A stretch of DNA of 64,000 nucleotides, from positions 3,168,001 through 3,232,000 of the forward strand of contig OZ242374.1 in assembly GCA_965209055.1 (NCBI GenBank), in the 5' to 3' direction. Position numbers and translations under genes: made by a program. Numbering within the stretch: the stretch's first letter is position 1; every line of letters starts with the position of its first letter. Below are positions 8,681-62,300 of this stretch, one piece after another. The stretch is from Acidobacteriota bacterium (GTDB taxonomy: Bacteria; Acidobacteriota; UBA6911; RPQK01; JAJDTT01). The notes below the pieces were generated by a model. It was not told the DNA's origin, did not search any database, and saw only the letters and a program-made list of their open reading frames with translations.

Positions 8681-8995
8681 CCGGAAAAACAGACTGTCCC
8701 CATCTCCAAGACTGTCCCCATCTCCACTCCCCATGGCGCCGGAGATCGGCCGCGGCGTGCGGCTGACCTACATCATGCGGTTCTTCTGATCCAGCCCGTC
8801 CGCGCGGGTGCTGCTGCCACGAACCGAACAACCACTCCGGAAAAACACACTCCGGAAAAACAGACTGTCCCTTTCTCCGTCCCTTTCTCCACTTTCCGAA
8901 AACTTGCCCGAATACCAGACTGTTCCCAGTTCCCCCGTCTCCGCCCGAGTACCAGACTGTCCCCATTTTCCCCCCAGTCCCCATTTTCCCCCCAC
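8681..8995. repeat. Cluster of five same-orientation junction-palindrome cores (AGACTGTYCC) with nested short duplications
   Basis: Cores at 8691, 8709, 8862, 8917, 8954; also cactccggaaaaa x2, ccctttctcc x2, tccccattttcccccc x2. Confidence 0.8.
8733..8789 (+). pseudogene. Isolated 3' end of a TonB-dependent receptor gene
   Basis: Encodes APEIGRGVRLTYIMRFF*, matching C-terminus APEIGRGVRLTYILRFF* of the gene ending at 18073. Confidence 0.85.
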
Positions 8996-9089
8996 GCATC
9001 GCAATCAGCACTTCTACCGTGTACACTGCAACAGTGTAGATCGTAGACGGAATACTTCACGAAAGAAGACTGAAAGCATGGAGGTCATC

Positions 9090-9311
9090 GTGAGAAACAT
9101 CACCCTGAGCGCTGACGAGAATATGATCGAAGCGGCTCGGCGCCGCGCGGTGGCGGAAAATACGACCTTGAACGGTCAGTTTCGGCTCTGGCTTGCCGAG
9201 TACGTTGGCGGGGAAAGGCAGGCAGCCCGGGCGATGCGTACCGTCCGTGAACTGCAAGGCAAACTGCGCGTCGGGCGCAAGTTGACGCGGGAAGAGATGA
9301 ATGAACGCTGA
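9090..9311 (+). CDS. VapB-like antitoxin
   Basis: GGAGG then GTG; NITLSADE..IEAARRRA...TTLN; ends LTREEMNER and overlaps the PIN gene. Confidence 0.75.
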   Translation: MRNITLSADENMIEAARRRAVAENTTLNGQFRLWLAEYVGGERQAARAMRTVRELQGKLRVGRKLTREEMNER

Positions 9312-9723
9312 AAGCTTCATCGATACAAATGTCTTCGTGTATCAGCTTGAGCGTCTTGATGTCCGTAAAGCCGATATTGCCGACCAACTCATCGGGCATG
9401 GAATCGAAACCCAGACGGCGTGCATCAGTTTTCAGGTGATCCAGGAGTGTCTCAACACCGCCACCCGCAAGGCTGAAGTGCCGCTGACCGAAGATGAGAT
9501 GCGCAAGTACATGATGGACGTCCTGAATCCGTTGTACAGAGTTCAACCAGATATCTGGCTCTATGGAAAATCACTGGAGATCCGATCCCGCTACGGTTTC
9601 AGCTTCTATGACTCGCTCATCGTTGCGGCCGCGATCAAGGCGGGCTGCAGAACCCTCTACAGCGAAGATCTTCAGCATGGGCAAGAGATTTCTGGCGTTG
9701 TCATCACGAACCCTTTCGGTTAG
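9301..9723 (+). CDS. PIN-domain (VapC-like) toxin
   Basis: FIDTNVFVY, SFQVIQE, SFYDSLIVAAA, LYSEDLQHG. Confidence 0.9.
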   Translation: MNAESFIDTNVFVYQLERLDVRKADIADQLIGHGIETQTACISFQVIQECLNTATRKAEVPLTEDEMRKYMMDVLNPLYRVQPDIWLYGKSLEIRSRYGFSFYDSLIVAAAIKAGCRTLYSEDLQHGQEISGVVITNPFG

Positions 9724-9747
9724 AGAACCGATCCCACGGAAAATCGC

Positions 9748-9771
9748 GGAAAATCGGACTGCCCCCTTCTT
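9748..9771. repeat. Junction palindrome copy (degenerate)
   Basis: ggaaaatcggactgcccccttctt directly after the TA pair. Confidence 0.5.
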
Positions 9772-9894
9772 GATCGGCCAAACCTCTTCCGCGTCATTGA
9801 CGATCCGGTGGACTCAGGCGATGGAAGGGTATGAATTAGGATAATTCAATATGTAACTTTGGAATATCCTGATAATTATTGTAAGCTGTCTGCG

Positions 9895-17800: not shown

Positions 17801-18073
17801 CTCAACGTCGGGGGATGGCGAATCAATCCGGAGTTGATCGTGGCCAGCGAGCAGAACCAGACCTTCACCGACGAGACCCGGACACCCGGATACAGCGTCG
17901 TGAACTTGAAGGCGTCCTACACCGTCGCCCAGCAGCACGTGGCGCACCAGTTCGCGGTGAAGGTTTTCAACATCGGCGACCGGTTCTATCGAAACCACTC
18001 TTCCTTCATCAAGGATCTGGCCCCCGAAATCGGCCGTGGCGTAAGACTGACCTACATCCTGCGTTTCTTCTGA
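14813..18073 (+). CDS. TonB-dependent receptor (ZnuD-like metal receptor) with ~320-aa His/Asp/Glu insert
   Basis: RBS gggagg, signal peptide, N-terminal carboxypeptidase-regulatory-like domain, plug RPIIRGFDGDRV / IERLEVVKGPATLLY, C-terminal Phe. Confidence 0.92.
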   Translation: MRIGHRSLTVWLGLVLWALQPALIAQSDGSLSGNVSLKDTGQPLHYASVSIEELDRSTVTDDDGNYEFDGVPPGTYRLIIHLDSLFTEVTTMVIVEAGEAAKANIFLELLPRRYEVTVTASEEHETVFEAFQSVESLGPYEMAESADITIGELLDHRVGSGIAKRGFGPGPARPIIRGFDGDRVLIMEDGIRSGTLSSQSGDHGELINPALIERLEVVKGPATLLYSGSAMGGTVNAISRHHQVHHHPHKGVRGFISGSAGTSNSLGGVNAGFEMGAGNWLFWGQGGGLRTGDYTAPEQGAIYNSRSRIANGGGGFGFYGEKMFFSVEAKYDEGLYGVPFVQDFHGHHGHGEEDEHDHDEEEDEHDHDHDEEEEEGEDDDHDHDHDEEEEEGEDDDHDHDHDEEEEEGEDDDHDHDHDEEEEEGEDDDHDHDHDEEEEEGEDDDHDHDHDEEEEEGEDDDHDHDHDEEEEEADDDHDHDHDEEGEEGEDDDHDHDHDEEEEEADDDHDHDHDEEGEEGEDDDHDHDHDEEEEEADDDHDHDHDNGEEEEEADDDHDHDHDEEGEEGEDEDHDHDNGEDEEEADDDHDHDHDEEEGEGEEDEDHDHDEEEGEGDEDEDHDHDEEEGEGDEDEDHDHDEEEGEEDEDHDHDEDEDHDEEDDHGHGGREIDRIVIDAHRLSYRFNWGLKDLGGAIDRFTLKLAYTDWSHDEIEYFTDGDWAIGTEFDNTQFTYRGVFEQQESGPLSGSFGFWGLNRDYSATGEEALSPPTTQNGFAVFALQVLDFENYKLQFGGRVETQRYNPGFAARGDGGHGHGGDAHGHGEDDHEEGLPDAVERTFTGASASVGIHADTWRNGAFVANYSHFYRAPSLEELYNYGPHAGSLAFEIGDPTMDAETGDGIELSLRHEDDQVHGGLSFFYYGFRNFIFPFAPGERLDDLQVIEFTQRDARYAGAEAEFGFRLHRALWLDLGMDMVDAQDTNTGTPLPRIPPLRGKIGLDLNVGGWRINPELIVASEQNQTFTDETRTPGYSVVNLKASYTVAQQHVAHQFAVKVFNIGDRFYRNHSSFIKDLAPEIGRGVRLTYILRFF
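15844..16803 (+). repeat. Coding tandem repeat, 48-bp unit (EGEDDDHDHDHDEEEE) with shorter variants
   Basis: gagggcgaggacgacgaccacgaccacgaccacgatgaggaagaggaa repeated with period 48 (e.g. 15935, 15983), degenerating toward 16800. Confidence 0.95.
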
Positions 18074-18112
18074 TCCCCTTGCGGGTCAGGCGCGGCGTCT
18101 TTCGAGGCACCG

Positions 18113-20435: not shown

Positions 20436-20590
20436 TGGGAGGGCGATTTCCAATCGCCCGGTTTCCCTCGTACGCGACGTCCAAAGAATCGGCGGTTAGG
20501 AAACCGCCGTTCCTGTCCGGCGGCAAGGATGCCGCCGCTCCTCCGGCGGTTAGGAAACCGCCGCTCCGCTCCTGCTGGAGGCGGCCTCCC
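20436..20590. repeat. REP-like palindrome cluster
   Basis: gggcgatttccaatcgccc; cggcggttaggaaaccgccg x2; cggcggcaaggatgccgccgctcc; same family as 2654 and 7284. Confidence 0.8.
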
Positions 20591-21881: not shown

Positions 21882-23387
21882 ATGAGACTCAACCGTTTTC
21901 CCGCCATCCTGGGACTGGCCGCCCTCTTGTCGCTGCCCGCAGCCCTGGCCGGCGACGCCGTCGACATCGGCTCGCGCCGCGAGCTGTTCGTGGATCATCT
22001 GCTGATCGACCGGCTCGTGGGAGCGAGCCTCCGCCTGGGCACGCCGCTGCCGGGCGGGGTGGCCATCCGTTTCGACGATCCGGTGGAAGACTCCACGGCC
22101 TTCTACACCACCATCTTCAAGGACGGCGACCTCTACCGCATGTACTACCGGGGTGCGCTCTTCGAGAGGAAGACCACCTGCTACGCCGAGAGCCGCGACG
22201 GGATCCATTGGACCAAGCCCGACCTGGGACTGGTCTCCATCGACGGCTCCTCCCAAAACCACGTGATCCTGCCCGAGGCGCGCCAGTTCGTCGCCTTCCT
22301 CGACCGGCGGCCGGGCGTACCTGCCTCCGAGCGGTACAAGGGGGTCTCCCGCGGGCCCGTCAATCCCCACGCCCTGGTGGGTTTCCTCTCCGGCGACGGC
22401 ATCCGCTGGCGGAGGCTCCGGGACGAGCCCATCGTGCCCAAGGTCCTGATCAACCACTTCGACTCGCAGAACGTCGCGTTCTGGTCGGAGGCCGAAGAAC
22501 AGTACGTGGTCTACGCCCGGCACATGGAAGGAGGCCGCCGCGCCACGGCGAGGTCCACCTCCGATGACTTCATCAACTGGACTCCCCAGGTCCTCATGAC
22601 CTACGGCGACACGGGCACGACGACTCCCTCGCACCACCTCTACACGAACCAGACCCAGCCCTATTTCCGGGCGCCGCACATCTACATCTCGCTGCCGGCC
22701 CGGATCATCTTCGCCGACCCGCGGCACGTTAAGTCCGACGACGACAAGCAGTTGGCGAGCCAGCGCCAACGCATCATCTCGCCCGAGCTGCGGGACTTCG
22801 TCAAGGAGAACATGCCCCTGATGGGCACCGCGGGGACGGGGGACCACTCCGACGCCGTCCTGCTCACCACGCGGGCGGGCACCACGGTCTACGACTTCAC
22901 CTTCCGGGAGAGCTTCGTGCGGCCCGGAATCGGCGTCAACAACTGGACGACCCGGACCAACTACCCGGCCTGCGGCATCGTCCCCACCGGCGACGGCGAG
23001 ATGTCCTTCTACATGCAGCGGAACTACGGGCAGAAGGGCGCGGCGTACCTGGAACGGATGACCCTGCGCCTGGACGGCTTCGCCAGCCTGAACGCGCCGT
23101 ACGACGGGGGCGAGATGCTCACCAAGCCGTTGCGCTTCAAGGGAAGCCGGCTGGAGATCAACTACGCCACCAGCGCGGCCGGGAGCGTCCGGATCGAAAT
23201 GCAGGACCCCGAGGGCCAGCCGATTCCCGGGTTCACGCTTGAGGATTGTCCCGAGATCATCGGCGACGAGATCCACCGGATCGTCGCCTGGAAGGGAGGC
23301 TCCGACGTGAGCTCCCTCTCCGGCAAGGCGGTGCGGATGCGCGTGGTCCTGAAGGACGCCGACCTCTACTCCATCCGCTTCCACTGA
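21882..23387 (+). CDS. Secreted beta-propeller glycoside-hydrolase-like protein (gene A)
   Basis: Signal peptide; IGSRRELFVD, YAESRDGIHWTKP, FDSQN, LRLDGFAS, DADLYSIRF. Confidence 0.7.
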   Translation: MRLNRFPAILGLAALLSLPAALAGDAVDIGSRRELFVDHLLIDRLVGASLRLGTPLPGGVAIRFDDPVEDSTAFYTTIFKDGDLYRMYYRGALFERKTTCYAESRDGIHWTKPDLGLVSIDGSSQNHVILPEARQFVAFLDRRPGVPASERYKGVSRGPVNPHALVGFLSGDGIRWRRLRDEPIVPKVLINHFDSQNVAFWSEAEEQYVVYARHMEGGRRATARSTSDDFINWTPQVLMTYGDTGTTTPSHHLYTNQTQPYFRAPHIYISLPARIIFADPRHVKSDDDKQLASQRQRIISPELRDFVKENMPLMGTAGTGDHSDAVLLTTRAGTTVYDFTFRESFVRPGIGVNNWTTRTNYPACGIVPTGDGEMSFYMQRNYGQKGAAYLERMTLRLDGFASLNAPYDGGEMLTKPLRFKGSRLEINYATSAAGSVRIEMQDPEGQPIPGFTLEDCPEIIGDEIHRIVAWKGGSDVSSLSGKAVRMRVVLKDADLYSIRFH

Positions 23388-23406
23388 CGCGGTGAAGGCG
23401 CCCGAC

Positions 23407-25074
23407 ATGAAGAGACACGGTTTCCTCCTGGCGCTCCTGTTGGTTGCCGTCTCCTGCGGCAGCCCGTCCCAGACCCCGGACATCGCCTCGAAAGGCGGTC
23501 CGAAGAAGGAGCGGAGGATCCTCTACTACGACTCCGCCGCCATCCAGTCGCACAGCTACCTGGACCGGGGGAAGGTGGAGCCGTACATGAGCCTCATCTA
23601 CGACATCAAGACCCACGACGACTTCCTGGACGCCAGCGTGCGCATGGTCAAGGGAACCCAGGTGGACACCTACCTGTGGCACATCGGGAACGGGGCCGAG
23701 CCGCCGTGGAACATTCCCACGGATCTGCTCTGGGACTGTTTCGATTCCTACGAGCAGGTGAACGACATCGTGATCCGGGCCTGCCATGAACAGGGGTTGG
23801 AGGTCTGGGGGTCTCTGCGCATGAGCGATCTTCACGCGGCCTTCCGGTCCCGGACCCTGGAGGAACTGGACGACGTCTACAAGGCGCAGCACCCCGAGCT
23901 GCTGATGGCGCCGATGACGGACCGCCAGCTCCCTTCCGAGCTGACGGAGCAGCGCCTCTGGGTGTCGTTCGACTACACCCATCCGGAGGTCCGCCAGCAT
24001 CGTCTCGACTACATCGCCAGGACCGCCGCGAGACACGATTTCGACGGCTACGAGCTGGACTTCAACCGCATGGGGATCCACTTCCCCATGGGGCAGGGAC
24101 GGCAAAAGGCCCACCTGATGACCGACATGATGCGGCAGATCCGGGAGCGGCTGAACGCCATCGGAGAGGAGCGGGGTCGGCCCTACACCCTGGCGGTCCA
24201 CGTGGTGGATTCCCTGGAGACCAACCTGGAGATCGGTCTGGACGTGGGGGCCTGGGCCCGGGAGGGGCTGGTGGACGTGCTGCTGGTGGGACTTGGATAC
24301 ATGCCCGACCAGTTGGCCATCGGGCAATGGGTGCGCCTGGCCGGGGAGACGGGGGTGCAGGTCTATCCGTCCATCAATCCCAACACCATGCGGGCGGGGG
24401 CCTGGGAGACGTTGCGGGAAAAACCCTCATTCCGCCAGGGAATGCGGGCCTACGCCGACTACTACCTGGACCAGGGCGCCGACGGGATCTACCTGTTCAA
24501 CTTCAGGCACGAGCCGACTCAGCGGCTGACCATGGAGGAGTTCACTGGGGTGCTGAGCGAGTTGGGAGCGCCCGAGACCATGGCCGGCAAGGACAAGGTC
24601 TACGCCCTCAATCCGACGGCGCATAGCGGGGGGCCGTTCTATCACGGCTCGGAGCCGGCGTTGTTGCCCATCGTGCTGGACCGGGTGGAGCGGAAGCTGC
24701 GGCTCCATCTGGGGCCCGCTGTGGAAGACGAGAAGGCCAGCCTGCGGCTGAGCGTCTTCACGGCCAAGGCCGGAAAGGGGACCATTCTCTGGGCGCGTCT
24801 GAATCACACGCTGCTGCCCGAGGCCGAGAGGGAAGGGGACTGGTTCCACTTCCAGGTTCCCACGGGCGTAGCGCGTAGCGGCATGAACGAGGTGGGCCTG
24901 ATCTCGAACGTTCCCGCCGCCGGCCCGTTTGCGGGCCTGATCGGTCCGCCCAATGCTGATCCTGCCGAGTTCCTGAAGCAGGCCTTCGGCCGCGTCAAGA
25001 ACGTCATCCAACGCGAGCAGGACCCAGTCGTGGTCCACCAGATCTTTTTGGAGATCAGCTATCCTGGGAAGTAG
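23407..25074 (+). CDS. Lipoprotein, GHL10-like TIM-barrel protein (gene B)
   Basis: Lipobox VAVSC; SLRMSD, FDYTHPEVR, FDGYELDF, GADGIYLFN. Confidence 0.7.
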   Translation: MKRHGFLLALLLVAVSCGSPSQTPDIASKGGPKKERRILYYDSAAIQSHSYLDRGKVEPYMSLIYDIKTHDDFLDASVRMVKGTQVDTYLWHIGNGAEPPWNIPTDLLWDCFDSYEQVNDIVIRACHEQGLEVWGSLRMSDLHAAFRSRTLEELDDVYKAQHPELLMAPMTDRQLPSELTEQRLWVSFDYTHPEVRQHRLDYIARTAARHDFDGYELDFNRMGIHFPMGQGRQKAHLMTDMMRQIRERLNAIGEERGRPYTLAVHVVDSLETNLEIGLDVGAWAREGLVDVLLVGLGYMPDQLAIGQWVRLAGETGVQVYPSINPNTMRAGAWETLREKPSFRQGMRAYADYYLDQGADGIYLFNFRHEPTQRLTMEEFTGVLSELGAPETMAGKDKVYALNPTAHSGGPFYHGSEPALLPIVLDRVERKLRLHLGPAVEDEKASLRLSVFTAKAGKGTILWARLNHTLLPEAEREGDWFHFQVPTGVARSGMNEVGLISNVPAAGPFAGLIGPPNADPAEFLKQAFGRVKNVIQREQDPVVVHQIFLEISYPGK

Positions 25075-26186: not shown

Positions 26187-26213
26187 GGGAGAAGTGGACG
26201 GTCACCATCACTC
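26187..26213. repeat. Junction palindrome copy
   Basis: gggagaagtggacggtcaccatcactc abutting the higA pseudogene. Confidence 0.6.
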
Positions 26214-26480
26214 AGCAACATGTTGAGCCGCGGCTATCAGTCGGTTCCTGTGCCCAACCACCCTGCGGAAGTCGAACTCGACTTGGAATGCCATGCCAGA
26301 AATCCTCCGACTGGCCGAAGAAGGCGCCAAAACGAATCGACATGGGCGGAGTGATCGACCGCCGGCCAAGGACGATTTCGTTGATCGCCCTCGGGGAGAC
26401 ACCGATGGCACGGGCCATGGCATTCTGTCAAATCCCCATCGGCTTGAGGTCTTCCTCCGCCTATTCCACCTTGTAACCCA
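26212..26480 (-). pseudogene. higA: HigA antitoxin pseudogene (copy 1)
   Basis: Aligns to 27494-27838 but frameshifted and truncated at both ends. Confidence 0.8.
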
Positions 26481-26532
26481 ACCGGGTCCACCCATTCTCC
26501 AGTTTCGCTTACGAAATCAGTTTCAATCGGTA

Positions 26533-26871: not shown

Positions 26872-26894
26872 AATTGCCCCGTCGTGGAGAGGGA

Positions 26895-27838: not shown

Positions 27839-27844
27839 TCCTCA

Positions 27845-27866: not shown

Positions 27867-27870
27867 GTTG

Positions 27871-44899: not shown

Positions 44900-45108
44900 C
44901 CGAGATCATCTTTGAAGTCACCGAGGACGAGGTGGATGGCGGGTATTCGGCCAGCGCATTGGGCTACGGCATACACAGCCAGGGCGACTCGCTCGAAGAA
45001 GTCCGCCGCAACGTCAAGGAATCAGTGGACTGCTACTTCGACGACACCATGCCGAGACCGAAGCTGATTCGCCTTCACTTCGTGCGAGACGAGTTCCTCG
45101 TGGCATAA
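44896..45108 (+). CDS. HicB-like (UPF0150) antitoxin
   Basis: ATGA overlap with hsdM; near-identical to 26659-26871. Confidence 0.8.
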   Translation: MTEIIFEVTEDEVDGGYSASALGYGIHSQGDSLEEVRRNVKESVDCYFDDTMPRPKLIRLHFVRDEFLVA

Positions 45109-45348
45109 AATTGCCCCGCAATGTGAGCGGAGCAAAACTCCAGGCAGCGCTTCGGCGTCTGGGATACGAAAGAGTGCGCCAGCGAGGCTCGAACTTGCGC
45201 ATAACGACGCAAGTCAACGGTGAATACCATGAAGTGATCCCCCTGCACAATCCGATCAAGGTGAGAACAATGTCGAGCATTCTAAAGAGCCATAGCCCGG
45301 CATTACGAAATGAGCGTCGAGGAGCTTTTGTATGAACTCGACTTGTGA
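45105..45348 (+). pseudogene. HicA toxin pseudogene
   Basis: KLPRNVSG..L..ALRRLGY..VRQRGS; start is ATA where the 26868 copy has ATG; apparent frameshift near 45290. Confidence 0.7.
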
Positions 45349-52587: not shown

Positions 52588-52752
52588 TTTCGGTGATCAG
52601 TTTTTTTATGAGAAGCACCAGGAATCGAAAGGTTTGTGGCACCTTCAACAGAGATATGAGAAAAGGTGCTGTCTCCGACGGGGCAAGGTTGGTAGCGCAC
52701 GCGACCTTCAGATGAACCTGGACCCGAAGTTGATATGAGGGGTATCGGTTCT

Positions 52753-53982
52753 ATGGAGCGGCGTGGTTTTCTCAAACAGTCTCTCTCAGCCGTTGCCTTG
52801 GGTGCGGCTGCCGGATGCACCCAGGGAGAACACTCAACCGGATCTACCGGACCCGCAAACCCCGCCCATCTCCACCGGGACGCTATCGTCATCGACACCT
52901 ACGGAAAGCTGTACCTGGAAGACTTCCAAAAGGGCCAGGTCGACGCCATCGTCCACGGCATCGGCGTCGAAGAAATCTTCCGGAGCGATGCCCGGGAAGG
53001 AATCATCGATCCTCCCGAGGTCGGCAAGAACATCTGCGACAACCTGTTTGGAGGACCCGAAGTGGTCAAGCGGGTCCTGCAGCGCGTCGACGAGATCCTG
53101 CAGCAGAGCGTTCGGCAGCACCCGGACGCCGTCGAGCTGGCCCTCCGTTCCTCCGACGTGAAGCGAATCGCCGGAGCCGGCAAGATCGCGGTGATCCCCA
53201 TGCTCAATGCGGGCTGGATCGACAACGATCTGGCCGTCCTGAGGATGTATCACCGCATGGGGATCCGGGTCTTCGCGCTGACCCACATCGCCGCTTTCGA
53301 CTGGGTCGACTCCAGCGGGGAACTGAACCCGAAGCCCGGGTTGAACGAATTCGGCCGGGAGGTGGTTCGCGAGTGCAACCGGATCGGGATGCTGGTGGAT
53401 GTCTCCCATGCGTCGGACCAGGCGTTCTGGGACACGGTCCACACCAGCTCCAGACCCATCATCGCCACCCATTCCGGTTGCCGGGCCCTGTGCTACGTGC
53501 AGCGCAACCTGACGGACGAGATGCTGCGGGCCCTGGCCGAGAACGGGGGTGTCGTGAGCATCTTCACCGTGCCCTCCTACCTGGACACCAAGGCCCTGAA
53601 CGACATGATGGCAAGCCGGTTCCTCCCCGACTACACGGACCGGGATCTTCGCCTCGCGCGGCAGTTCTCCGATCCCTGGGAGATTGCCGCCGCCATGAGG
53701 AACACGCTGGATTCGCATTCCTACACCGAGGAAATCGACCTGCCTCCCATCGACGTTTTCCTGGACCACATCGACCATGCCGTCCAAGTGGCCGGAATCG
53801 ACCATGTGGCGGTCTCCTCGGACAACGAGCCGGTCGAGGGCCTGGAAGACCGGTCCCAGTGGCCGAACCTGACCCGGGGTCTGGTGAAGCGGGGATACGG
53901 CGACCGGGACATCCGAAAGATCCTGGGGGAGAACTTCCTCCGGGTCTGGGACCAGGCGGCCGGGACCCCGGATGTGAGTTAG
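52753..53982 (+). CDS. Membrane dipeptidase (M19) family Tat lipoprotein
   Basis: MERRGFLK...AAAGC; GLNEFGREVVRECNRIGMLVDVSH, IATHS, QRNLTDE, KILGENFLRV. Confidence 0.88.
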   Translation: MERRGFLKQSLSAVALGAAAGCTQGEHSTGSTGPANPAHLHRDAIVIDTYGKLYLEDFQKGQVDAIVHGIGVEEIFRSDAREGIIDPPEVGKNICDNLFGGPEVVKRVLQRVDEILQQSVRQHPDAVELALRSSDVKRIAGAGKIAVIPMLNAGWIDNDLAVLRMYHRMGIRVFALTHIAAFDWVDSSGELNPKPGLNEFGREVVRECNRIGMLVDVSHASDQAFWDTVHTSSRPIIATHSGCRALCYVQRNLTDEMLRALAENGGVVSIFTVPSYLDTKALNDMMASRFLPDYTDRDLRLARQFSDPWEIAAAMRNTLDSHSYTEEIDLPPIDVFLDHIDHAVQVAGIDHVAVSSDNEPVEGLEDRSQWPNLTRGLVKRGYGDRDIRKILGENFLRVWDQAAGTPDVS

Positions 53983-54032
53983 ATCCGGCGCCGTCTCGTC
54001 ATCCATTTCAAAATCATCTACGGAGGAAACCG

Positions 54033-54626
54033 ATGGTGGAACTGAACTCGACTTGGAAGAGGAATTTCGACGTCTACGACAGGATCAGGCGGCTGGGAAT
54101 CGATCTGGGGAAGAAGGAAGACTCACTTCCGCCTCCGGGCGCGCAGAACCTAGCCCAGGCCACCTTCACCCCCTCGGGTCTGATCTTCCTTTCCGGCACC
54201 ACCGCCGGCATGGGAGCGGTCACCGACGACGATGCGGAGATCGAGAAGGGGGCTGCGGCAGCTCGCGAGGCGGGTATCGCGCACATCCGCGTTCTGCACT
54301 GGGGACTCCATCCGCTGGGGACGCTGAACGACGTCTGGTACTGCGTCAAAGGTCTCGGCATGGTCAACTCGGCCGGCGGCGGGGTCCTGACCCTCTCGCA
54401 CCTGGTCGTCAACGGTTACTCCAAAGTCTTTCATGATGTCTTCGGCGGACCGCTCTCGCAGTTTGCGGAAGACGGCAAGGATCAATCGCTTTCGGGCTGG
54501 CACGCGCGCAGTGCCGTCGGGGGTTTCGATCTGCCCGCAGGAGTCCGGGCCGAGCCCGAGATGATCGTCCAGATCGATCCCGAGCTTGCTTTGAGAATTA
54601 TCCGGGAGAAAGGCCCTCACGCGTAG
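54033..54626 (+). CDS. RidA/YjgF-family protein (copy 1)
   Basis: RBS ggagg; LIFLSG, VKGLGMVNS, VVNGYS, HARSAVG, EPEMIV. Confidence 0.8.
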   Translation: MVELNSTWKRNFDVYDRIRRLGIDLGKKEDSLPPPGAQNLAQATFTPSGLIFLSGTTAGMGAVTDDDAEIEKGAAAAREAGIAHIRVLHWGLHPLGTLNDVWYCVKGLGMVNSAGGGVLTLSHLVVNGYSKVFHDVFGGPLSQFAEDGKDQSLSGWHARSAVGGFDLPAGVRAEPEMIVQIDPELALRIIREKGPHA

Positions 54627-54630
54627 GATC

Positions 54631-54655
54631 GGGAAAGGGACAGTCTACTTCTCCC
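54631..54655. repeat. Junction palindrome copy
   Basis: gggaaagggacagtctacttctccc, 4 bp after the RidA stop. Confidence 0.8.
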
Positions 54656-54848
54656 TGAGGAGTCGTTTAACAACCTGTTGGTTTCCTCAGATCGTTCTCC
54701 AAGAGAAAGTAGGGCCGAGGAGAGAAAGTGGGGCCGAGGACAACTCACGGAAGTCCATCGTCCCTTCTTGTAGGGCTTCACCTTTGTACTACATCGATAA
54801 TTGTTCCGACTGGCGCATATCGTCTCCTACCGTAGTGTGGTCTAGCGG

Positions 54849-55270
54849 CTAACGAGATCCTTGTACCGGAGCCGCTGTCTGATGGCGCGGTAGGCGACCA
54901 GCGACATCTGAGCCAGCGTTCCGAGTTCCCGCATGTTGTGGCGTCCGGCGGACTCTCCGATTTAGCGGTGAAGATGCTGCACGGAGAGTTTGTGGAAGGT
55001 GCCCATGTGCGCCCATTCCAGTATGGACCAAAACGATTCAACGCCGTAAGTGTGCACCGAGCCCCTGACGCACTTCATGTGAGAATGCTTGACCGTCTCG
55101 TGGTTGGCCAGGGAGGCGTAGGGACTGGCGTCGTCCGTGTAAACCTGAGCGGCTGGCTCGATGCGGCCATGGACGAAACCCTGGAATGCCTTGGCCGTCG
55201 TGTTCGGCGCGACTTCGACGGAGACTCCGTTGGTCCTCCGGCCCTTCACACCGGCCACCACCGTCAAGGG
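54849..55270 (-). mobile_element. IS1595-family transposase remnant
   Basis: QVYTDD..Y, HETVKHS, VHTYGVESFWS, GTFHKLS..HL; ends RLRYKDL; fragmented. Confidence 0.8.
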
Positions 55271-55501
55271 TGATCACACCGACGCCGAACCGGCCCACCA
55301 TGTGTCGTCCGTGTAGGTCGTGAAGATTCAGCTCTATTCTGATACGCTTTCTGTTCATAAGGCCGTGCGCTTTCTGTTTTGTGAGGTGCTGATGGTACGT
55401 CCGGAAATCTAGAGTCCACGGCTTTAATAAGTGTATCTGATGAGAAGTCCGAATCAACATAGCTAGCCGGTGAACTACTTCGAGTCGGAGTGTGAGAAAT
55501 A

Positions 55502-56086
55502 ATGGGCCATTCGAACGTAAGTTGTATTGAGACAAATAAGAACTCCTCTTATTGGGCGAGGAAGCAGTTGAAACACACTGAGTTGCGGGATGCAATTCTT
55601 TCGTCCGATATTTTGCTTCTTCCGTACGAAGGATTCCGAGACTATCAAGGATTGGTTTTTCCGGTCAATACCGAAGAGCTGTTTGCTCAACTCAAGGAAA
55701 CTCTTCCTGACAATATACGAATCGATGTGGCAGTGAGCGATGATGATTATGTAGAATTGTCACTCCGTTCGGATCTTCTGCATATAGCTGATATCTTAGT
55801 GGAATACGTCTTGGCCCCGATCCTCGTAGCTTTCCTCGCAGACTACATCAAAAATCGGCTCCGTCGGCGTTATGACCAAACTAATGTAAAGACATCTTTC
55901 TTTATTGAAGACGTCGGCAAGACAACACGCAAAACCGTTCGGGTATCGTACGAAGGACCTGCAACCGAATTCGAGAAGACAATGAGAGGGTTTATTAGCG
56001 GAATGTCGTCGAAGGTTGATTTGGATACGTCCACTAACGAGGATGATGAACCAATGTCTCACAATCCTGGCAGTGAAGGGCCATGA
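55502..56086 (+). CDS. Hypothetical protein (upstream partner of the SEC-C protein)
   Basis: Low-GC 194-aa ORF; ATGA overlap with the next gene. Confidence 0.7.
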   Translation: MGHSNVSCIETNKNSSYWARKQLKHTELRDAILSSDILLLPYEGFRDYQGLVFPVNTEELFAQLKETLPDNIRIDVAVSDDDYVELSLRSDLLHIADILVEYVLAPILVAFLADYIKNRLRRRYDQTNVKTSFFIEDVGKTTRKTVRVSYEGPATEFEKTMRGFISGMSSKVDLDTSTNEDDEPMSHNPGSEGP

Positions 56087-56931
56087 GAATCGACGATGTC
56101 AGAGAGTTTTTGCAAGGCGTCGCAAATCGGACGGAAGATCCATCGTCCGATATTGCATCGATTCTAGCTCAGCACAAAAGCTCCATGGTGTCGAAAGGTG
56201 ATGACGCTGGAGCGAAGTTGATATGGCGTCTAGAGCAAGCATTGCGAGCACAGAATCTGTACATAGGCGCGTATGCTGCAATGAAAAAAAGACGCTTCTA
56301 TCGTGCGTGGTGCGAACTGGAGAAGGCGGAGATTGCAGTCGATAGTCTTGAACCTCACGAAGTAGACTATTGGAGTGACTTTAGACTTGACTTTATTCAG
56401 GAGTACATTGAGAAGTGGCAAAAACTTTTTCCATACAAGTATTTTTTTAGCCCCGAATTTTTGATGCTCGAAAAGACCTGCTCCGTTTGTCGAGCCAAAG
56501 TATCATTTAGATATCCGTGCGGACATCGGGTAGGAGAGATTTACCGAGGCGAGATGTGTTATCGAATAGTGACGGAGATAAAACCTCTTGGTGCAGCGAT
56601 TGTCAAGAATCCTGCGCAGAAATATTCTGTACTTTTCCTATCCGATACCGAATCAGGAGAAAAAAGAGATCAATACAATTACGGACTAGTCGAGTATGCG
56701 GTACGGGCAGTTCGGAAGCCCTTTGACAAATGGAACGCCACTTGGACTCAAAGGCTGCAGCCGCACGAGCGATTTCGTCACATCGGTCGCAATGATCCCT
56801 GCCCGTGCGGCTCCAACTACAAATATAAGAAGTGCTGTTTGGTGGAAAAAGGCGTGTTACGGCCACACCTACAGTTCTCATTCGAAAAGGCGCCTCCTGC
56901 TGACGTCCCTACTACGTTATACGTTCGTTGA
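56083..56931 (+). CDS. SEC-C motif protein with additional Zn-binding motif
   Basis: GRNDPCPCGSNYKYKKCC; CSVC...CGH..GEIY.GE.C. Confidence 0.8.
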   Translation: MRIDDVREFLQGVANRTEDPSSDIASILAQHKSSMVSKGDDAGAKLIWRLEQALRAQNLYIGAYAAMKKRRFYRAWCELEKAEIAVDSLEPHEVDYWSDFRLDFIQEYIEKWQKLFPYKYFFSPEFLMLEKTCSVCRAKVSFRYPCGHRVGEIYRGEMCYRIVTEIKPLGAAIVKNPAQKYSVLFLSDTESGEKRDQYNYGLVEYAVRAVRKPFDKWNATWTQRLQPHERFRHIGRNDPCPCGSNYKYKKCCLVEKGVLRPHLQFSFEKAPPADVPTTLYVR

Positions 56932-57276
56932 CCAGTAATCTCGTATTGTGTAGCGCGTGATGGGAAACGGTTGTAACCTAGCGTCTGCGAGATCCAGGCC
57001 GTAGCTGTCGCTCCAATTTGTAGCGTTCGAAGCCGTTCACGCAGGCCGAGCCGACCGAGAAATCGAGACTCTACGTCCCCTGTTTTTTCTATTGGGACCA
57101 TTTGGGTCAGTTGCAAGATACTGATGCATTCTTGATGGTCTGCTCCCAGTACGTTACGTGCTGTCGGATTCACTGGCTCGTACTTCTCAATTTCAGTGTC
57201 AGACTTGACCCGAAGGGAACAATTTGTTCGACACTGATATGGGAAGCATTTGCGCCCGGCACATCGTCACGGATGC

Positions 57277-57302
57277 GGGAGAGAAGGTGACTGTTCCCTT
57301 CT
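57277..57302. repeat. Junction palindrome copy (reverse orientation)
   Basis: gggagagaaggtgactgttcccttct. Confidence 0.8.
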
Positions 57303-57307
57303 GGGCG

Positions 57308-57745
57308 TGTTTGAAGGCCCGGACGTGGTCAGGCGGGTCCTGCAGCGCGTCGACGAGATACTCCAGCAAAGCGTGCGGCAGCTCGCGAGGCGGGTATCGC
57401 ACACATCCGCGTTCTGCACTGGGGACTCCATCCGCTGGGGACGCTGAACGACGTCTGGTACTGCGTCAAAGGTCTCGGCATGGTCAACTCGGCCGGCGGC
57501 GGGGTCCTGACCCTCTCGCACTTGGTGGTAAACCGATACTCCAAGGTCTTTCATGATGTCTTCGGCGGACCGCTCTCTCATTTTGCGGACGATGGCAGGG
57601 ATCAATCTCTTTCGGGTTGGTACGCACGCAGCTCCGTTGGGGGGGCGACCTGCCCGCGGGAGTCCGGGCCGAGCCCGAGATGATCGTCCAGATCGAACCC
57701 GAGCTTGCCGTGAGAATCATCCGGGAGAATGGCCCTCAAGCGTAG
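57308..57745 (+). pseudogene. Chimeric dipeptidase/RidA pseudogene (copy 2)
   Basis: Aligns to ~53045-53119, then jumps to 54256-54626 across shared CGGCAGC. Confidence 0.9.
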
Positions 57746-57815
57746 CGTTTGACAGAATGGTGACGGGGATGGGACTGAAAACCAGTCAACTCCCCCCATT
57801 GAGAGATACAACCGA

Positions 57816-59147
57816 ATGCATGACGAAACCCGTGACAACCAACTCATCAAGGTGGCATTGCCCGCCACAGTGCCGTCCCAATCTGCACCCTCACTCGACC
57901 TCATTACAGATGCGCTGGGGGTGCCTCGCGACATCTTAGCGAGTGACGAGGAAATCCAAGAAGCGTGGCGGGGGCTGCCCAGACGTTTAAACCAGATCCC
58001 AGCTGAACGCAGGTCGGAGTCGCTTGCTCGCATGTGTGTTGCCGTGGCCAGCGGACTCTTTGACGCTGCCATTAACTATGTGTGGAACGCTTCAATAACG
58101 GAATTGCGCAACAAGGTTCGACATTTCGGTGTTCACATTGTTCCTGAGATCACCCGCAAGCCCTTTGAGGAAAAGAACCTAGAAGATCTTAAGGATGCCG
58201 AACTCCTTAACCTTTGTTTGAGTCTGAATCTCATTACAGAAGATGGTTATTTCTTTCTTGAGCAGTGCCGGCAAGTCCGGAATAATTTCTCGACGGCTCA
58301 CCCACCGATGGGATCGTTAGACGACGCGGAGTTTCTGCGTTTCGTCAACCTGTGTGCCAAGTACGCTCTATCTTCAACTCAGAATCCTCGTGGAGTCCAC
58401 TCTCAAGAGTTCATCACCGCACTCAAGGGCCGCAAGTTTAGTATTGAGCAGCTCAACGAATGGATTTCGCGCTTAACATCCACCCATTCTGCTCAATTCC
58501 AGCTACTTATCGGAATGCTCCATGGAATGTACTGCGACCCGGCTTCTTCGGAAGAACATCGAATTAACGCTCTGAGTATCTGCCAGCACTTTGCTGAGGA
58601 GCTGACACCTGGGATCAAATCAGATCTCATTAATAGGCATTCTGAATATGTCGCCCAAGGGAAGACTAAGCGCCAAACAGCTTCCCAAGAGTTCTTTAAC
58701 AAACTGAGCCTTCTTTCCCTACTATCGGAAAACGAGCGCCACACCTTAATCTCAAACGCTTGCCGTAAACTTCGTTCCATCCACCAAGGTTGGGATAACT
58801 TTTATAACGAACCTCCATTCGCGGAGAGACTTTTGGAGCTATCCACACAAGTGATCGTTCCAGTCACTGCCCAAGAGGAGTTCATCCACGTCCTTGCCGT
58901 TTGTGGTACTGGGAATCAGTATGGCGTTTCAAATCGAGCGCTGCCTTGCTATCAAAAAATGGTCAGCGGCTTGTCTCCCTTGCAGGTGGCAATATTGCTC
59001 GAAGCTCCAGAAAGGGATCCTCTTCTCGTATTCTATCTTAAGTGGAGGCAGTGTCAGCGTCGGTTTTCCGATCTTCTAAGTCATGTTGATAGAACATCCG
59101 TTCCAGCCAAATCTAAACGGATGTACAAGAAGTGGATGAAATACTAA
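57816..59147 (+). CDS. Hypothetical protein with HEPN-like Rx4-6H motif
   Basis: Low-GC 443-aa ORF; AAINYVWN...RNNFSTAHP. Confidence 0.7.
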   Translation: MHDETRDNQLIKVALPATVPSQSAPSLDLITDALGVPRDILASDEEIQEAWRGLPRRLNQIPAERRSESLARMCVAVASGLFDAAINYVWNASITELRNKVRHFGVHIVPEITRKPFEEKNLEDLKDAELLNLCLSLNLITEDGYFFLEQCRQVRNNFSTAHPPMGSLDDAEFLRFVNLCAKYALSSTQNPRGVHSQEFITALKGRKFSIEQLNEWISRLTSTHSAQFQLLIGMLHGMYCDPASSEEHRINALSICQHFAEELTPGIKSDLINRHSEYVAQGKTKRQTASQEFFNKLSLLSLLSENERHTLISNACRKLRSIHQGWDNFYNEPPFAERLLELSTQVIVPVTAQEEFIHVLAVCGTGNQYGVSNRALPCYQKMVSGLSPLQVAILLEAPERDPLLVFYLKWRQCQRRFSDLLSHVDRTSVPAKSKRMYKKWMKY

Positions 59148-59354
59148 AATTGGATTCTTTTTTATATCGAATTAGATCGACATGGGCAGAATGGCTGTTG
59201 GACTCGAAAGGTCAGCTACGGCGAATGCAATACCAGCGACCGCAATCTCGAGTTGGCCAAGGAGACAGCATCCAAGAAATCGCAGCCGGCGAGAAAGGGA
59301 TATTTGCCGTCTCGTTCATGGCAGAGTTTCGACGGAAGAAAAAGGAGAGCCTGC

Positions 59355-59807
59355 ATGAGGCATGACGAGGCTAGGAATTACCTGGACCGGGCAACGGCTA
59401 GAGTGGAAGCCGAGGATCGGCATCTCTTGGAGGTCAACGTCAGCGAGAGGTGTATCGCGGCACGGCTCGCGATGTACCTGCGGGAGTACTTTTGGGACTT
59501 CGATGTGGATGTTGAATACAATCGGGATGCCTATACAGTGAAGCGGCTGCATGATGTGATACGCGACTGTCCTCGTAACCGCAATGGCGGCCACCCCGTT
59601 CTACCTGATGTAATCGTACATAAACGCGATTTGCGGGACTTGAATTTGCTGGTGATCGAGATGAAGAAAGACTCGGGTACAAGAGGCCTGGATTGCGACC
59701 GTCAGCGCATCAAGGCATTTCGGGAAGAGCTTGGCTATAGGTTCGGGGCCCTGGTGGTTTGCAAGACGGGTGAGGAGTACGCAATATCTGTTGAGTGGTA
59801 CGGGTGA
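59355..59807 (+). CDS. Small PD-(D/E)XK nuclease-like protein
   Basis: RBS aaggag; SERCIAARLA, VDVEYNR, PDVIVH, VIEMKK. Confidence 0.65.
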   Translation: MRHDEARNYLDRATARVEAEDRHLLEVNVSERCIAARLAMYLREYFWDFDVDVEYNRDAYTVKRLHDVIRDCPRNRNGGHPVLPDVIVHKRDLRDLNLLVIEMKKDSGTRGLDCDRQRIKAFREELGYRFGALVVCKTGEEYAISVEWYG

Positions 59808-60028
59808 AGTCCAGTGATACGGTCGATTCGCCCATCAACACTGCCGATGGCTTCGGGAATCCCCCCAACTTTAGCCAGCGGCAACTAAGTTGTCTGCGGG
59901 AATAACCGCACACGGCTCGCGCGGAGTACGTGACTTTCATCTTCTCCATTTTCGCGAGAGGCAAACGCGAAATTCATTTGGAACAGGACGGTCTCGGGGG
60001 ACTGGCAGCTTGTCACGGAAGCGGTAGC

Positions 60029-60053
60029 AGAGAAGGTGACTGTCCCCTTCTCC
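60029..60053. repeat. Junction palindrome copy (reverse orientation)
   Basis: agagaaggtgactgtccccttctcc. Confidence 0.85.
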
Positions 60054-60067
60054 GCGATCTGCCCGCG

Positions 60068-60345
60068 CGCTGGATTCGCATTCCTACACCGAGGAAATCG
60101 ACCTGCCTCCCATCGACGTTTTCCTGGACCACATCGACCATGCCGTCCAGGTGGCCGGAATCGACCACGTGGCGGTCTCCTCGGACAACGAGCCCGTCGA
60201 GGGCCTGGAAGACCGATCCCAGTGGCCGAACCTGACCCGGGGTCTGGTGAAGCGGGGATACGGCGACCGGGACATCCGAAAGATCCTGGGGGTGAACTTC
60301 CTCCGGGTCTGGGACCAGGCGGCCGGGACCCCGGATGTGAGTTAG
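60068..60345 (+). pseudogene. 3' fragment of the dipeptidase gene (copy 3)
   Basis: Near-identical to ~53705-53982. Confidence 0.92.
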
Positions 60346-61535
60346 GGAAGGTCTGATTAAGTCCTCATATGGGGCGAAACAGACCTTGTATCCCTCCCTT
60401 TTTCGGATCCAGACGCTCTAACCTGGGATTTGCAACCCTGAATTGGTCTTGACCAAGCGATTGCGAGACGGTTTCCCCAGCCTCAAACACAGCCGTGCCG
60501 CATTCCGATCAGGCGGTCACACCGGAGCGCTCGGCGATCATCAGATTGGCGAATCCCACCAGCAGATAGATCCGTTGGGTGTTTTTCGCCAGCCCGCGGT
60601 AGCGCACCTTGGCGTAGCCGAAATGCCGTTTCAGGTACCCGAACACATGTTCTGCCTTCGCCCGTACCGATGCCTTACGCCGCTCGGCCAACGCCGCCTC
60701 ACTCTCCGGCGACAGCTGCCAACGCTTCCCGGGCTTCATCATCACCTGCCAATCCACCGGCCGATCTCGATTCTCCGACCGCTTCTGCACTCCCTGGTAT
60801 CCGGAATCCCCCCAAACTTGCGACTCCGAGCCGTGCAGCAATTCGGAGGCCCGCGTCACGTCATGCTCGTTGGCCGGAGCCGTCACCACCGTGTGCGCCA
60901 CCCCCGTCTGGGCGTCCACCCCCAGGTGGGCCTTCATTCCGAAATACCACTGTTTTCCCTTTTTCGTCTGGTGCATCTCCGGATCCCGCGCCCGATCCTT
61001 GTTTTTCGTCGAGGAAGGCGCCGCCAGGATACTCGCGTCCACGATCGTCCCCCGGCTCAGCCGCAGGCCTTGACGCTGCAGGTGAGAACCGATCTCCTCG
61101 AACAGCGCCTCCCCCAGACCATGCTCCTCCAGCCGATGACGGAACTTCAGAATCGTCGTCTCGTCCGGCAGCGGCCCTGTGAGCTTCAGACCCACGAACC
61201 GCCGCACCGACTCCACCTCGTAAAGCAGATCCTCCATCCCCGGATCGCTCAGGTTGTAAAACAACTGCACGCAGTGGATCCGCAGCATCGCCGAGAGCGG
61301 GTAGGGACGCCGGCCCCGTCCCGCTTTCGGGTAAAACGGCTCAATCCGGGCTTCCAACTGCTCCCACGGAATCAACCCGTCCATGCGGACCAGAAACTTC
61401 TCCCGACGGGTCACCCGCTTCTTGGCGTCGTATTCCAGATCTGCGAACGTCCGTTGCGACATCGTCTTTCCCCCCACGCAGTGATGATGAAGGGATTATC
61501 GTGCAGAACGCTGACTCGACTTAATCAGACCTTCC
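60346..61535 (-). mobile_element. IS5-family insertion sequence, 1190 bp
   Basis: 18-bp perfect TIR GGAAGGTCTGATTAAGTC; TTAG duplicated; the empty site is visible in the paralogous copy at 53979-53982. Confidence 0.95.
60509..61462 (-). CDS. IS5 transposase
   Basis: PDETTILKFR, IVDAS, QWYFGMKAH.GVD, WGDSGYQG, RAKAEHVF, VRYRGLAKN. Confidence 0.95.
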   Translation of the reverse strand: MSQRTFADLEYDAKKRVTRREKFLVRMDGLIPWEQLEARIEPFYPKAGRGRRPYPLSAMLRIHCVQLFYNLSDPGMEDLLYEVESVRRFVGLKLTGPLPDETTILKFRHRLEEHGLGEALFEEIGSHLQRQGLRLSRGTIVDASILAAPSSTKNKDRARDPEMHQTKKGKQWYFGMKAHLGVDAQTGVAHTVVTAPANEHDVTRASELLHGSESQVWGDSGYQGVQKRSENRDRPVDWQVMMKPGKRWQLSPESEAALAERRKASVRAKAEHVFGYLKRHFGYAKVRYRGLAKNTQRIYLLVGFANLMIAERSGVTA

Positions 61536-61590
61536 TTAGATCCGGCGCCGTCTCGTCATCCATTTCAAAAATCATCTACGGAGGAAACCG

Positions 61591-62184
61591 ATGGTGGAAC
61601 TGAATTCGACTTGGAAGAGGAATTTCGACGTCTACGACAGGATCAGGCGGCTGGGAATCGATCTGGGGAAGAAGGAAGACTCACTTCCGCCTCCGGGCGC
61701 GCAGAACCTAGCCCAGGCCACCTTCACCCCCTCGGGTCTGATCTTCCTTTCCGGCACCACTGCCGGCATGGGGGCGGTCACCGACGACGATGCGGAGATC
61801 GAGAAGGGGGCCGCGGCGGCTCGCGAGGCGGGTATCGCGCACATCCGCGTTCTGCACTGGGGACTCCATCCTCAGGGGTCGCTGAACGATGTCTGGTACT
61901 GCGTCAAAGGCCTCGGCATGGTCAACTCGGCCGGCGGCGGGGTCCTGACCCTCTCGCACCTGGTCGTCAACGGATATTCGAAAGTCTTTCATGACGTCTT
62001 CGGCGGACCGCTGTCGCAGTTTGCGGAAGACGGCAAGGATCAGTCGCTTTCGGGCTGGCATGCACGCAGTGCCGTCGGTGGGTTCGATCTGCCCGCGGGA
62101 GTCCGGGCCGAACCCGAGATGATCGTCCAGATCGACCCCGAGCTTGCTTTGAGAATCATCCGGGAGAAAGGCCCTCATGCGTAG
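61591..62184 (+). CDS. RidA/YjgF-family protein (copy 3, intact)
   Basis: Two amino-acid differences from 54033-54626. Confidence 0.85.
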   Translation: MVELNSTWKRNFDVYDRIRRLGIDLGKKEDSLPPPGAQNLAQATFTPSGLIFLSGTTAGMGAVTDDDAEIEKGAAAAREAGIAHIRVLHWGLHPQGSLNDVWYCVKGLGMVNSAGGGVLTLSHLVVNGYSKVFHDVFGGPLSQFAEDGKDQSLSGWHARSAVGGFDLPAGVRAEPEMIVQIDPELALRIIREKGPHA

Positions 62185-62195
62185 GACCGGGAACG

Positions 62196-62300
62196 GTAGG
62201 AGGGGGGACATTCCTGTCCCCCTCTTCGCTTTTGCAATCACAGCGCCCAGTTGATCTGGAGGTCGGAAAAGGATCGGGATAGGGACAGTCCGCTTTTCCC
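62196..62300. repeat. REP-like hairpin followed by a junction palindrome copy
   Basis: gtaggaggggggacattcctgtccccctc (62196); gggatagggacagtccgcttttccc (62276-62300). Confidence 0.7.

Follow-up and report, generated by a model that had tools for sequence, protein, structure and literature searches.

The window analysed here, a 64,000-nucleotide stretch of an Acidobacteriota genome (genome positions 3168001–3232000 of a single contig of 6.08 Mb, 63% G+C), carries an island made up of resident genes, truncated copies of these genes and blocks of defence-type genes. A short repeat, termed the box, is found at most of the joints between these parts. Upstream of a transposase gene the box has the consensus RRAAGGGGACAGTC, plus a variable pyrimidine-rich tail. 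The transposase is encoded outside of the window and is related to the REP-associated tyrosine transposases (RAYTs), named after repetitive extragenic palindromic sequences (REPs). We lean, with modest confidence, to the reading that the box is the end repeat of multi-copy RAYT-like Y1/HUH transposase units and that the enzyme, acting in trans, makes the joints of the island. Coordinates are window positions unless "genome" is stated.

The original prediction for this stretch gave the motif as a 27-mer, which occurs 3 times in the window with at most 3 mismatches and in none of 100 shuffles. The core, GGGACAGTC, is present 8 times in the window (0.87 expected) and 186 times in the genome, where about 75 are expected from base composition; the genomic copies concentrate strongly in a few bins of 100 kb. 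A position matrix was trained on genome-wide box copies. Two unrelated repeat families share GGGGACA and were split by hand rules before the box matrix was rebuilt, the second being an abundant hairpin repeat, GTAGGAG-GGGGGACA-NNNN-TGTCCCCC (the GTAG-type hairpin repeat). The box matrix gives 173 matches with a score of at least 16 in the whole genome versus 5 in the reversed genome; the motif, for which a genome-wide scan had been proposed, is real.

At the window threshold (score of at least 14) the matrix finds 16 loci versus about 0.1 expected per window (reversed-genome control: 21 per whole genome). These start at 8682, 8853, 8945, 9747, 26188, 26896, 27379, 32840, 34947, 37108, 37222, 37467, 54630, 57279, 60028 and 62275. 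The original prediction counted about 19 copies by eye, and 16 of its 19 positions are recovered. Position 52658 is unsupported, and 8709 and 8917 show the core with a matrix score under threshold. Position 34948 is ruled out as an inserted motif, as it is a diverged copy of the coding sequence of the gene at 23392–25074 (native ...GGAAAGGGGACCATTCTCT...). The boxes at 27382 and 37109 are degenerate (scores 14.6 and 15.0). Between 9772 and 26188 the matrix finds no match with a score of at least 14, in agreement with the predicted absence of the motif from the housekeeping stretch. The features of the island are listed below; X1 and X2 denote two adjacent resident genes, ORF an open reading frame, HTH helix-turn-helix, IS an insertion sequence and aa amino acids.

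8682–8725 (−): two adjacent upstream-type (LE) boxes, GGAGATGGGGACAGTCTGTTTTTCC then GGAGATGGGGACAGTCTTGG (matrix 32.4 at 8682; exact cores 8692–8700 and 8710–8718)
8734–8792 (+): copy of the 3′ end of a TonB-dependent receptor gene, 59 bp, 85%, native 18018–18076, beginning 9 bp past a box (blastn; receptor by Pfam)
8853–8970 (−): three box copies (8853, degenerate 8917, 8945), each arm directly duplicated at 8840–8895 (matrix, sequence)
9747–9772 (−): box directly after an antitoxin-like ORF and PIN pair, 9057–9723 (matrix 24.1; PIN domain)
21888–25074 (+): intact resident X1 (about 21888–23387) and X2 (23392–25074), source of duplicated fragments (blastn)
26188–26213 (+): box C; an HTH antitoxin gene fragment (26231–26457) begins 17 bp on (matrix)
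26510–26881 (+): copy of the 3′ end of a type I methylase gene, 94%, native 44747–45118, stopping 14 bp short of box D (blastn)
26896–26935 (+): box D, right arm repeated, GTCACCCTTTCTCTCG GTCACCTTCTCTC (matrix 35.2)
27379–32865 (no strand): payload unit from box E (+, 27379) to box F (−, 32840), with an HTH gene, a HamB-like DEAD helicase (PDC-M23B) and a split PDC-M23A (matrix, profile matches)
32860–33782 (+): partial duplicate abutting box F, the X1 3′ end and X2 with an internal deletion (blastn)
34947–35122 (+): X2 fragment; the supposed motif at 34948 is diverged X2 coding sequence and no box (sequence comparison)
37108–37492 (+): degenerate box H, X2 fragment 37131–37211, box I (37222), antitoxin-gene fragment 37242–37461, box J (37467) (blastn, matrix)
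52735–54626 (+): intact M19 dipeptidase gene and downstream 156-aa ORF region, source of the second duplicate set (blastn, Pfam)
54630–57304 (no strand): box L (+, 54630), cargo block 1, box M (−, 57279) (matrix)
57308–57745 (+): partial duplicate, 75 bp of the M19 interior joined to the 156-aa ORF region (88–92%), beginning 4 bp past box M (blastn)
57746–60053 (no strand): cargo block 2, including a PD-Lambda-3_A-like ORF (59253–59807) and ending in box N (−, 60028) (matrix, profile match)
60068–62196 (+): partial duplicate, M19 3′ end (98%) and downstream region (96%), interrupted by an IS at 60342–61539 (blastn)
62275–62300 (+): box O, the native box after the 156-aa ORF region, with a GTAG-type hairpin repeat (62196–62254) inserted between (matrix)

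X1 and X2 match no Pfam or NCBIfam family. Three layouts recur along the list. The M19/ORF region is followed by box L(+), cargo block 1, box M(−) and a partial copy; cargo block 2 is followed by box N(−), a partial copy and box O(+); and box E(+) is followed by the helicase system, box F(−) and the X1/X2 copy. Inverted pairs of boxes bracket cargo as predicted, with E(+)/F(−) at 27379/32840 and L(+)/M(−) at 54630/57279.

The cargo between the joints includes the HamB-like helicase system (PDC-M23), GmrSD/HEC-05 and a radical-SAM/TcmP pair (PDC-M41-like). Further cargo consists of the PD-Lambda-3_A-like ORF, type I restriction genes, and HigBA-like and PIN modules. The description of the cargo as defence-type is borne out by these matches, toxin-antitoxin modules included. 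The PDC-M23A-like gene (31377–32174, −) is divided between two ORFs, one matching profile positions 1–140 and the other 149–257, and is probably broken.

Joints between boxes and gene fragments

Three resident sources account for the duplicated host fragments: the X1/X2 pair (21888–25074), the M19 dipeptidase gene together with the 156-aa ORF region that follows it (52735–54626), and the final 59 bp of the TonB-dependent receptor gene. Identities overall range from 76% to 98% (blastn, window against genome). All six truncated gene copies of the original prediction are found as blastn duplicates: 8734–8792 of 18018–18076 (85%), 32860–33198 of 23232–23570 (85%), 34966–35122 of 33506–33656, 37131–37211 of 23532–23612 (95%), 57308–57382 of 53045–53119 (88%) and 60068–60345 of 53705–53982 (98%).

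These duplicates end at boxes far more often than random placement gives. A duplication end lies at most 20 bp away at 11 of the 12 island boxes, versus a null mean of 0.85, and none of 10,000 random placements reaches the observed count; the null is a uniform placement, so that any shared preference for intergenic DNA stays in. Genome-wide, a local duplicate abuts 34 of 116 box loci versus 13 of 116 sites displaced by 0.4–1.5 kb (Fisher p = 0.0005), where the 116 loci may include a few GTAG-type hairpin repeats, the filter having removed none. The predicted link between motif and breakpoint is positive in both tests and recurs in the islands of four congeners, as described below. At most joints the intact native copy lacks a box at the equivalent position. 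Such joints, with a box in a single partner, cannot come from homologous exchange between two boxes.

Complementary parts of a single antitoxin gene adjoin boxes C and J (both GGGAGAAGTGGACrGTCAC), in 26187–26457 and 37242–37492. The two parts overlap by 44 bp (native 27577–27620), which would fit a single insertion with a duplication of 44 bp whose halves later came to lie 11 kb apart.

The island from X2 to M19 is syntenic across the genus. X1/X2 orthologues are found in 9/9 genus genomes, often as 2–3 tandem copies. The islands of four congeners were compared and display independent joints of a box to a gene fragment. For instance, in G001 a box stands directly before X2 position 466, in G002 a box stands 13 bp before X1 position 1429, and in G005 a box stands 5 bp before antitoxin-gene position 84. 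The box F/X1 joint of the window and the X2 deletion are both also present in G001. The helicase unit from E to F is found in G005 with both boxes (93.5% over 5481 bp) and a different right-hand neighbour. G001 shows M19, the ORF region and box O, with both cargo blocks absent.

In the original prediction cargo is joined to a host homology arm. A maximum-likelihood tree of the X2 3′ region does not agree with arms brought in with the cargo. The second copies of G001 and G002 each pair with the resident copy of their own genome (99/98 and 89/84), the deleted X2 copies of G000 and G001 form a 100/100 clade, and three G005 copies are not placed. Since second copies group with residents, the tree suggests that most duplicates were born in place and were not imported as arms. 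The deleted copy common to G000 and G001 could be inherited or transferred.

A mosaic of this kind might also come from the co-assembly of strains. The record is of the metagenome-assembled type with a contamination estimate of 7.4%, but contigs of runs X20/X22 span 54601–57431 and 57667–60097 with 0 differences, at a depth of 64–70 versus 57–67 in neighbouring single-copy DNA; the two runs are one sample, perhaps the source of the assembly, and are not independent of the assembly data. In addition, the same kinds of joints, and one identical joint, occur in other genus genomes. With contigs at even depth across the joints and with the joints of congeners, an assembly artefact, which the original prediction had itself raised, is extremely improbable. 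Among the runs with a small share (sponge, coral-reef and marine metagenomes), the IS and an intact M19 locus of a relative are present in runs X1 and X3; no habitat claim is drawn from this.

The IS at 60342–61539, which interrupts the M19-copy joint, has more than 20 near-identical genome copies and shows TTAG on both sides. A second IS (42360–44009; 4–5 copies) precedes the truncated type I methylase gene. The GTAG-type hairpin copy at 62196–62270 sits inside the native box with about 13 bp (GGAYCGGGAWMGG) on both sides, like a target duplication. This hairpin repeat gives about 300 matrix matches genome-wide and is a family separate from the box.

A Y1 transposase family flanked by the box

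A protein family linked to the box was found by clustering the ORFs within 6 kb of box loci, and at two loci the gene overlaps box arrays. By tblastn the genome carries six paralogues of 305–328 aa (genome 1741336, 2674704, 3139745, 3750219, 4989681 and 5164573). The nearest, 3139745, is 28 kb upstream of the window. Five of the six show no internal stop and three are 97–98% identical in protein. The family matches Pfam Y1_Tnp (PF01797) with 27.9 bits versus a cut-off of 23, and NCBIfam REP_Tyr_transpos (NF047646) with E = 2.5e-12 over profile positions 6–145 of 146; the equivalog score of NF047646 is not reached (46.9 bits versus a cut-off of 80). The H-Y-H in NHYHFIV and the Y in LYVELN, which we take to be the HUH motif and the catalytic tyrosine, are invariant across 23 sequences, and there is a conserved C-terminal extension of about 130 aa. 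Matches are present in all 8 other genus genomes (3–13 each) and in 29 of 41 relatives searched, a tally that includes the unpublished G016. The original prediction held a RAYT-like Y1/HUH enzyme encoded elsewhere to be plausible, and the box-flanked paralogues bear this out.

In related Acidobacteriota genomes an upstream (+) box is present at 53 of 53 transposase loci and a downstream (−) box at 48 of 53. The upstream consensus at these loci is AAGAAGGGGACAGTCTGTTTTTCCGG and the downstream consensus is GGAAAGGGACAGTCTCGATTTCCGG, with orientation counts of 96:6 upstream and 120:12 downstream. The loci of the genome itself are alike, with 1–4 boxes upstream in gene orientation and up to 5 inverted boxes downstream. 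Boxes lie 46–300 bp upstream of the transposase start. Many units have the layout host, box(+), gene, box(−), host copy, the same as that of the cargo blocks of the window, which have no transposase.

The host copy is seen as imperfect direct repeats of host DNA (80–264 bp, 70–98%) just outside the box arrays at 16 of 59 transposase loci, versus 7 of 200 random spans (Fisher p = 6e-7); the 16 loci are not independent, since some are orthologues of one another, and they reduce to about 8 repeat families. A transposase unit occupies the locus at genome 5164573 in 9/9 genus genomes, and nested trimming is seen there: the host copy begins at query position 365 in G005, 485 in G006 and 542 in G000, in each case right at the box.

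Two further features accompany the transposase genes. In the loci L046–L101 the first approximately 110 nucleotides (nt) past the transposase stop form a strongly conserved non-coding trailer (TAGACTCGCCTGATC..GCCACCGCGGCACCGAACGACCCAGATCACGG..CCCAATAGACT), and there is a conserved leader of about 45 nt. Rfam gives no match of note on five transposase loci, and RNAalifold predicts 0 pairs in the trailer from a poor alignment. At genome 1751886–1752500, 10 kb from transposase copy 1741336, about 20 units of 25–40 bp that each contain a box (GGAAATGGGGACAGTCCCGATCTCGT and variants) stand in tandem.

Across the family the conserved element is a box of 14 nt that is asymmetric, has a variable tail and is present in direct arrays of 1–5. 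The imperfect palindrome described for the window is true of the window subfamily only, GAGAAGG-GGACAGTCA-CCTTCTC, which displays 11-bp inverted arms around a central base; it looks palindromic because both of its arms are of the purine-rich arm type. In 293 unique copies, pairing between the arms is at the level of shuffled arms.

The arms of the window subfamily, together with the blocks that stand between sites, could point to an integron-like or Xer/dif-like recombination with the palindrome as core site, and the original prediction named an integron-like array and a tyrosine recombinase. Integrons carry structured sites of the attC type between cassettes and an adjacent IntI integrase. 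The likeness lies in the serial accessory modules (defence, toxin-antitoxin) placed between recurrent short imperfect palindromes. In contrast, the sites here are of about 25 bp without conserved attC-like structure, the family-wide element is not palindromic, and the modules are multi-gene, occur in both orientations and alternate with fragments of host genes. Among the ORFs within 6 kb of the 28 box regions no recombinase family is recurrent, and no integrase is seen beside the array, though no IntI or Xer profile search was made. A recurring family of about 400 aa near boxes is enolase-like by eye, without a profile search. Moreover the breakpoints lie outside the core, at various positions 1–36 nt from the box centre on either side, and the box is tied to a Y1 gene at 53/53 loci. 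Site-specific recombination of this kind is very improbable.

A conserved element that is a sequence box and not a hairpin may also suggest double-stranded binding sites (operators or nucleoid sites) of a domesticated Y1-family protein or another regulator, so that boxes would be intergenic control elements with no joining role. The position of boxes upstream of the transposase start fits with this, as do boxes upstream of a cation-efflux gene at 8.7 kb, in the orientation of the gene, and the C-terminal extension of the protein. But control elements leave unexplained both the gene fragments that start at boxes and the host duplications round transposase units, and boxes are also found downstream of genes and between pseudogene fragments. 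Boxes as regulator sites alone are improbable.

How the joints may arise

The comparisons establish that the box goes with the enzyme gene, that joints go with boxes, and that transposase units and cargo blocks have one layout in common, with host duplication and with trimming beside the box. In the reading that we favour, the transposase would act in trans, binding to boxes and nicking or joining DNA there. Payloads with inverted boxes at their ends would be inserted or rearranged beside a box already in place. Either this reaction or the repair that follows it would copy upstream host DNA over a variable length (0.04–1.6 kb), and the copy would later be eroded by box-adjacent deletions. Repeated rounds might then pile defence blocks and gene fragments into an island.

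A stronger form, which we put forward tentatively and regard as unlikely in full, is that of an active island builder with an undescribed transposition mode. Such an enzyme would recognise non-hairpin box arrays, mobilise defence cassettes without a transposase in trans, and duplicate and then trim one-sided host DNA (tens of bp to >1 kb). If true, this would be a tyrosine-HUH route to the accretion of defence islands, distinct from integrons, integrases and the classical "peel and paste" of IS200/IS605. To our knowledge no Y1 element makes long variable target duplications, and for this reason the reaction, if enzymatic, would be new.

Several observations weigh against a joining role of the enzyme at the box. 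Cutting or joining at the box is itself something that we infer from sequence comparisons. The distance between joint and box centre varies within 1–36 nt, with 15 joints 5′ of the centre and 9 joints 3′ of it, so that they do not mark one cleavage position. Native host breakpoint sites display no box likeness (mean best matrix score −6.1 versus −7.8 in controls, p = 0.23), and a clean pair of "empty site" and "box inserted" was not found. The hairpin that the original prediction ascribed to the motif is not upheld for the family-wide element, which shows no arm covariation: the mean number of paired arm positions is 3.52 versus 3.37 for shuffled arms, the DNA folding energy is weak (−2.8 versus −2.1 kcal/mol in shuffles), and 7 of 8 arm pairs are present in 2% of the 293 unique copies versus 1.6% in the null (loop offsets 0–4). 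Because the box does not fold as REPs do, the known recognition mode of RAYTs may not apply. The dominant GTCACCTTCTC tail of the window is found in 0 of the 6 transposase copies of the genome, the cognate copy being present only in relatives (e.g. L050, L009). A search of 14 other family genomes turned up nothing of cargo block 1 apart from a multi-copy piece of 400 bp, and cargo block 2 is unique to the window's genome among 15 family genomes; being absent from any other locus or genome searched, the two blocks are not established as mobile units. A structure model of the enzyme is too poor to use (mean predicted local distance difference test score 49.7, predicted template modelling score 0.42; shallow 23-row alignment). 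A sequence search of solved structures with the enzyme gives a chance match only (E = 0.17).

By eye, a pseudo-box seemed to be present at native breakpoints, in X1 as CGATTCCCGGG, which is like the tail of the downstream box, and in M19 as ACAACCTGTTT. This candidate was rejected, as the matrix test is not significant.

Part of these observations would be expected of passive repeats, and this is the main rival to a joining enzyme. Boxes would have spread at one time with the transposase family and would now merely mark edges in a duplication-prone locus, with joints that come from host recombination or repair (slippage, microhomology-mediated joining, unequal crossing-over). The varying distance from joint to box centre agrees with this. 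There are also tandem X1-X2-antitoxin copies in congeners that show no box at some joints (G005 11766 and 19726), and 13 of 116 displaced control sites abut duplicates too. At the box F/X1 joint a 7-bp microhomology, TTCACGC, is present; in G005 the 7 bp are retained and the X1 fragment is absent. But host recombination between repeats does not account for joints at which, in most cases, one partner only carries a box, nor for the strong enrichment at the island boxes (11/12 versus 0.85). The same layout of host duplication is also found round transposase units at about 8 unrelated loci, and trimming of the host copy always begins at the box. We regard passive repeats as a doubtful explanation, although one with a real share of the probability, and retain the enzyme acting in trans as the preferred reading.

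Comparison with known systems

The system is best placed with the REP/RAYT kind, from which it departs in several ways, and its rearrangement signature is unexplained. The general view of RAYTs is that of single-copy, domesticated enzymes, with small hairpin repeats as the only known substrates. As in REP/REPIN-RAYT systems, a Y1/HUH gene stands between inverted copies of a short repeat of its own, and further copies, dispersed at a distance from the gene, are presumably substrates in trans. Vertical inheritance at some loci, with one locus in 9/9 genus genomes, is a further likeness.

The differences are several. RAYTs are typically single-copy per genome (PMC5581495), whereas the present family is multi-copy (6 here, 3–13 matches in each of 8 congeners). 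REPs show a conserved GTAG or CGTC tetranucleotide at one end (PMC3733652), whereas the present box forms no stable hairpin and neither tag is found in the box consensus sequences AAGAAGGGGACAGTCTGTTTTTCC and GGAAAGGGACAGTCTCGATTTCC. The protein has about twice the length of the profile (328 aa versus 146 positions) and is under the profile cut-off. The units are bracketed by long host duplications, and there are about a hundred repeats here in island clusters versus hundreds spread evenly.

IS200/IS605 elements have subterminal hairpins at their ends, no inverted repeats and no target duplication. The present family shares with them the Y1 transposase, several genome copies and possible trans-mobilised derivatives without a transposase, but displays inverted box arrays at the ends, flanking duplications of 80–264 bp (up to 1.6 kb) and no hairpin that could be found. 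IS91/ISCR elements and Helitrons employ enzymes of the Y2 type or Rep-helicases, and the DNA that they capture is carried to new loci. Host gene fragments of variable length at one defined element end, with cargo accumulating there, are common to both, but the fragments here are in-situ paralogues of the adjacent gene and the enzyme is of the Y1 type. The joint pattern is not explained by known transposition mechanisms.

Earlier work exists on the biochemistry of E. coli RAYTs and on REPs at the join-points of duplications. A literature search for REPs at duplication join-points found no paper, and supplements may hold relevant RAYT groups. In a second search, no title or abstract described a HUH/Y1 transposase with defence cargo and target duplication. 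The present RAYT-related family is multi-copy, has a sequence box in place of a hairpin, is accompanied by long host duplications, and its boxes bound multi-gene defence payloads in a hotspot that differs from species to species within the genus. Should the joints be the work of the enzyme, this would be a new mechanism of defence-island building and a new type of HUH reaction. If it does not, the island is still a clear case of a short repeat that marks nearly every rearrangement joint in a variable region.

The genome also carries a separate, more canonical RAYT-like gene at genome 1142949–1143257 (L126; NF047646, 78.2 bits). It is flanked by a different repeat, GGGCGATTTCCTAATCGCCC and GGCGGTT..AACCGCC hairpins, and a neighbouring ORF resembles a tyrosine recombinase by eye, without a profile search. 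Other multi-copy intergenic repeats in the window, at 2640–2790 and 20489–20580, are 80–130 bp in length, have dozens of genome copies and are unrelated to the box.

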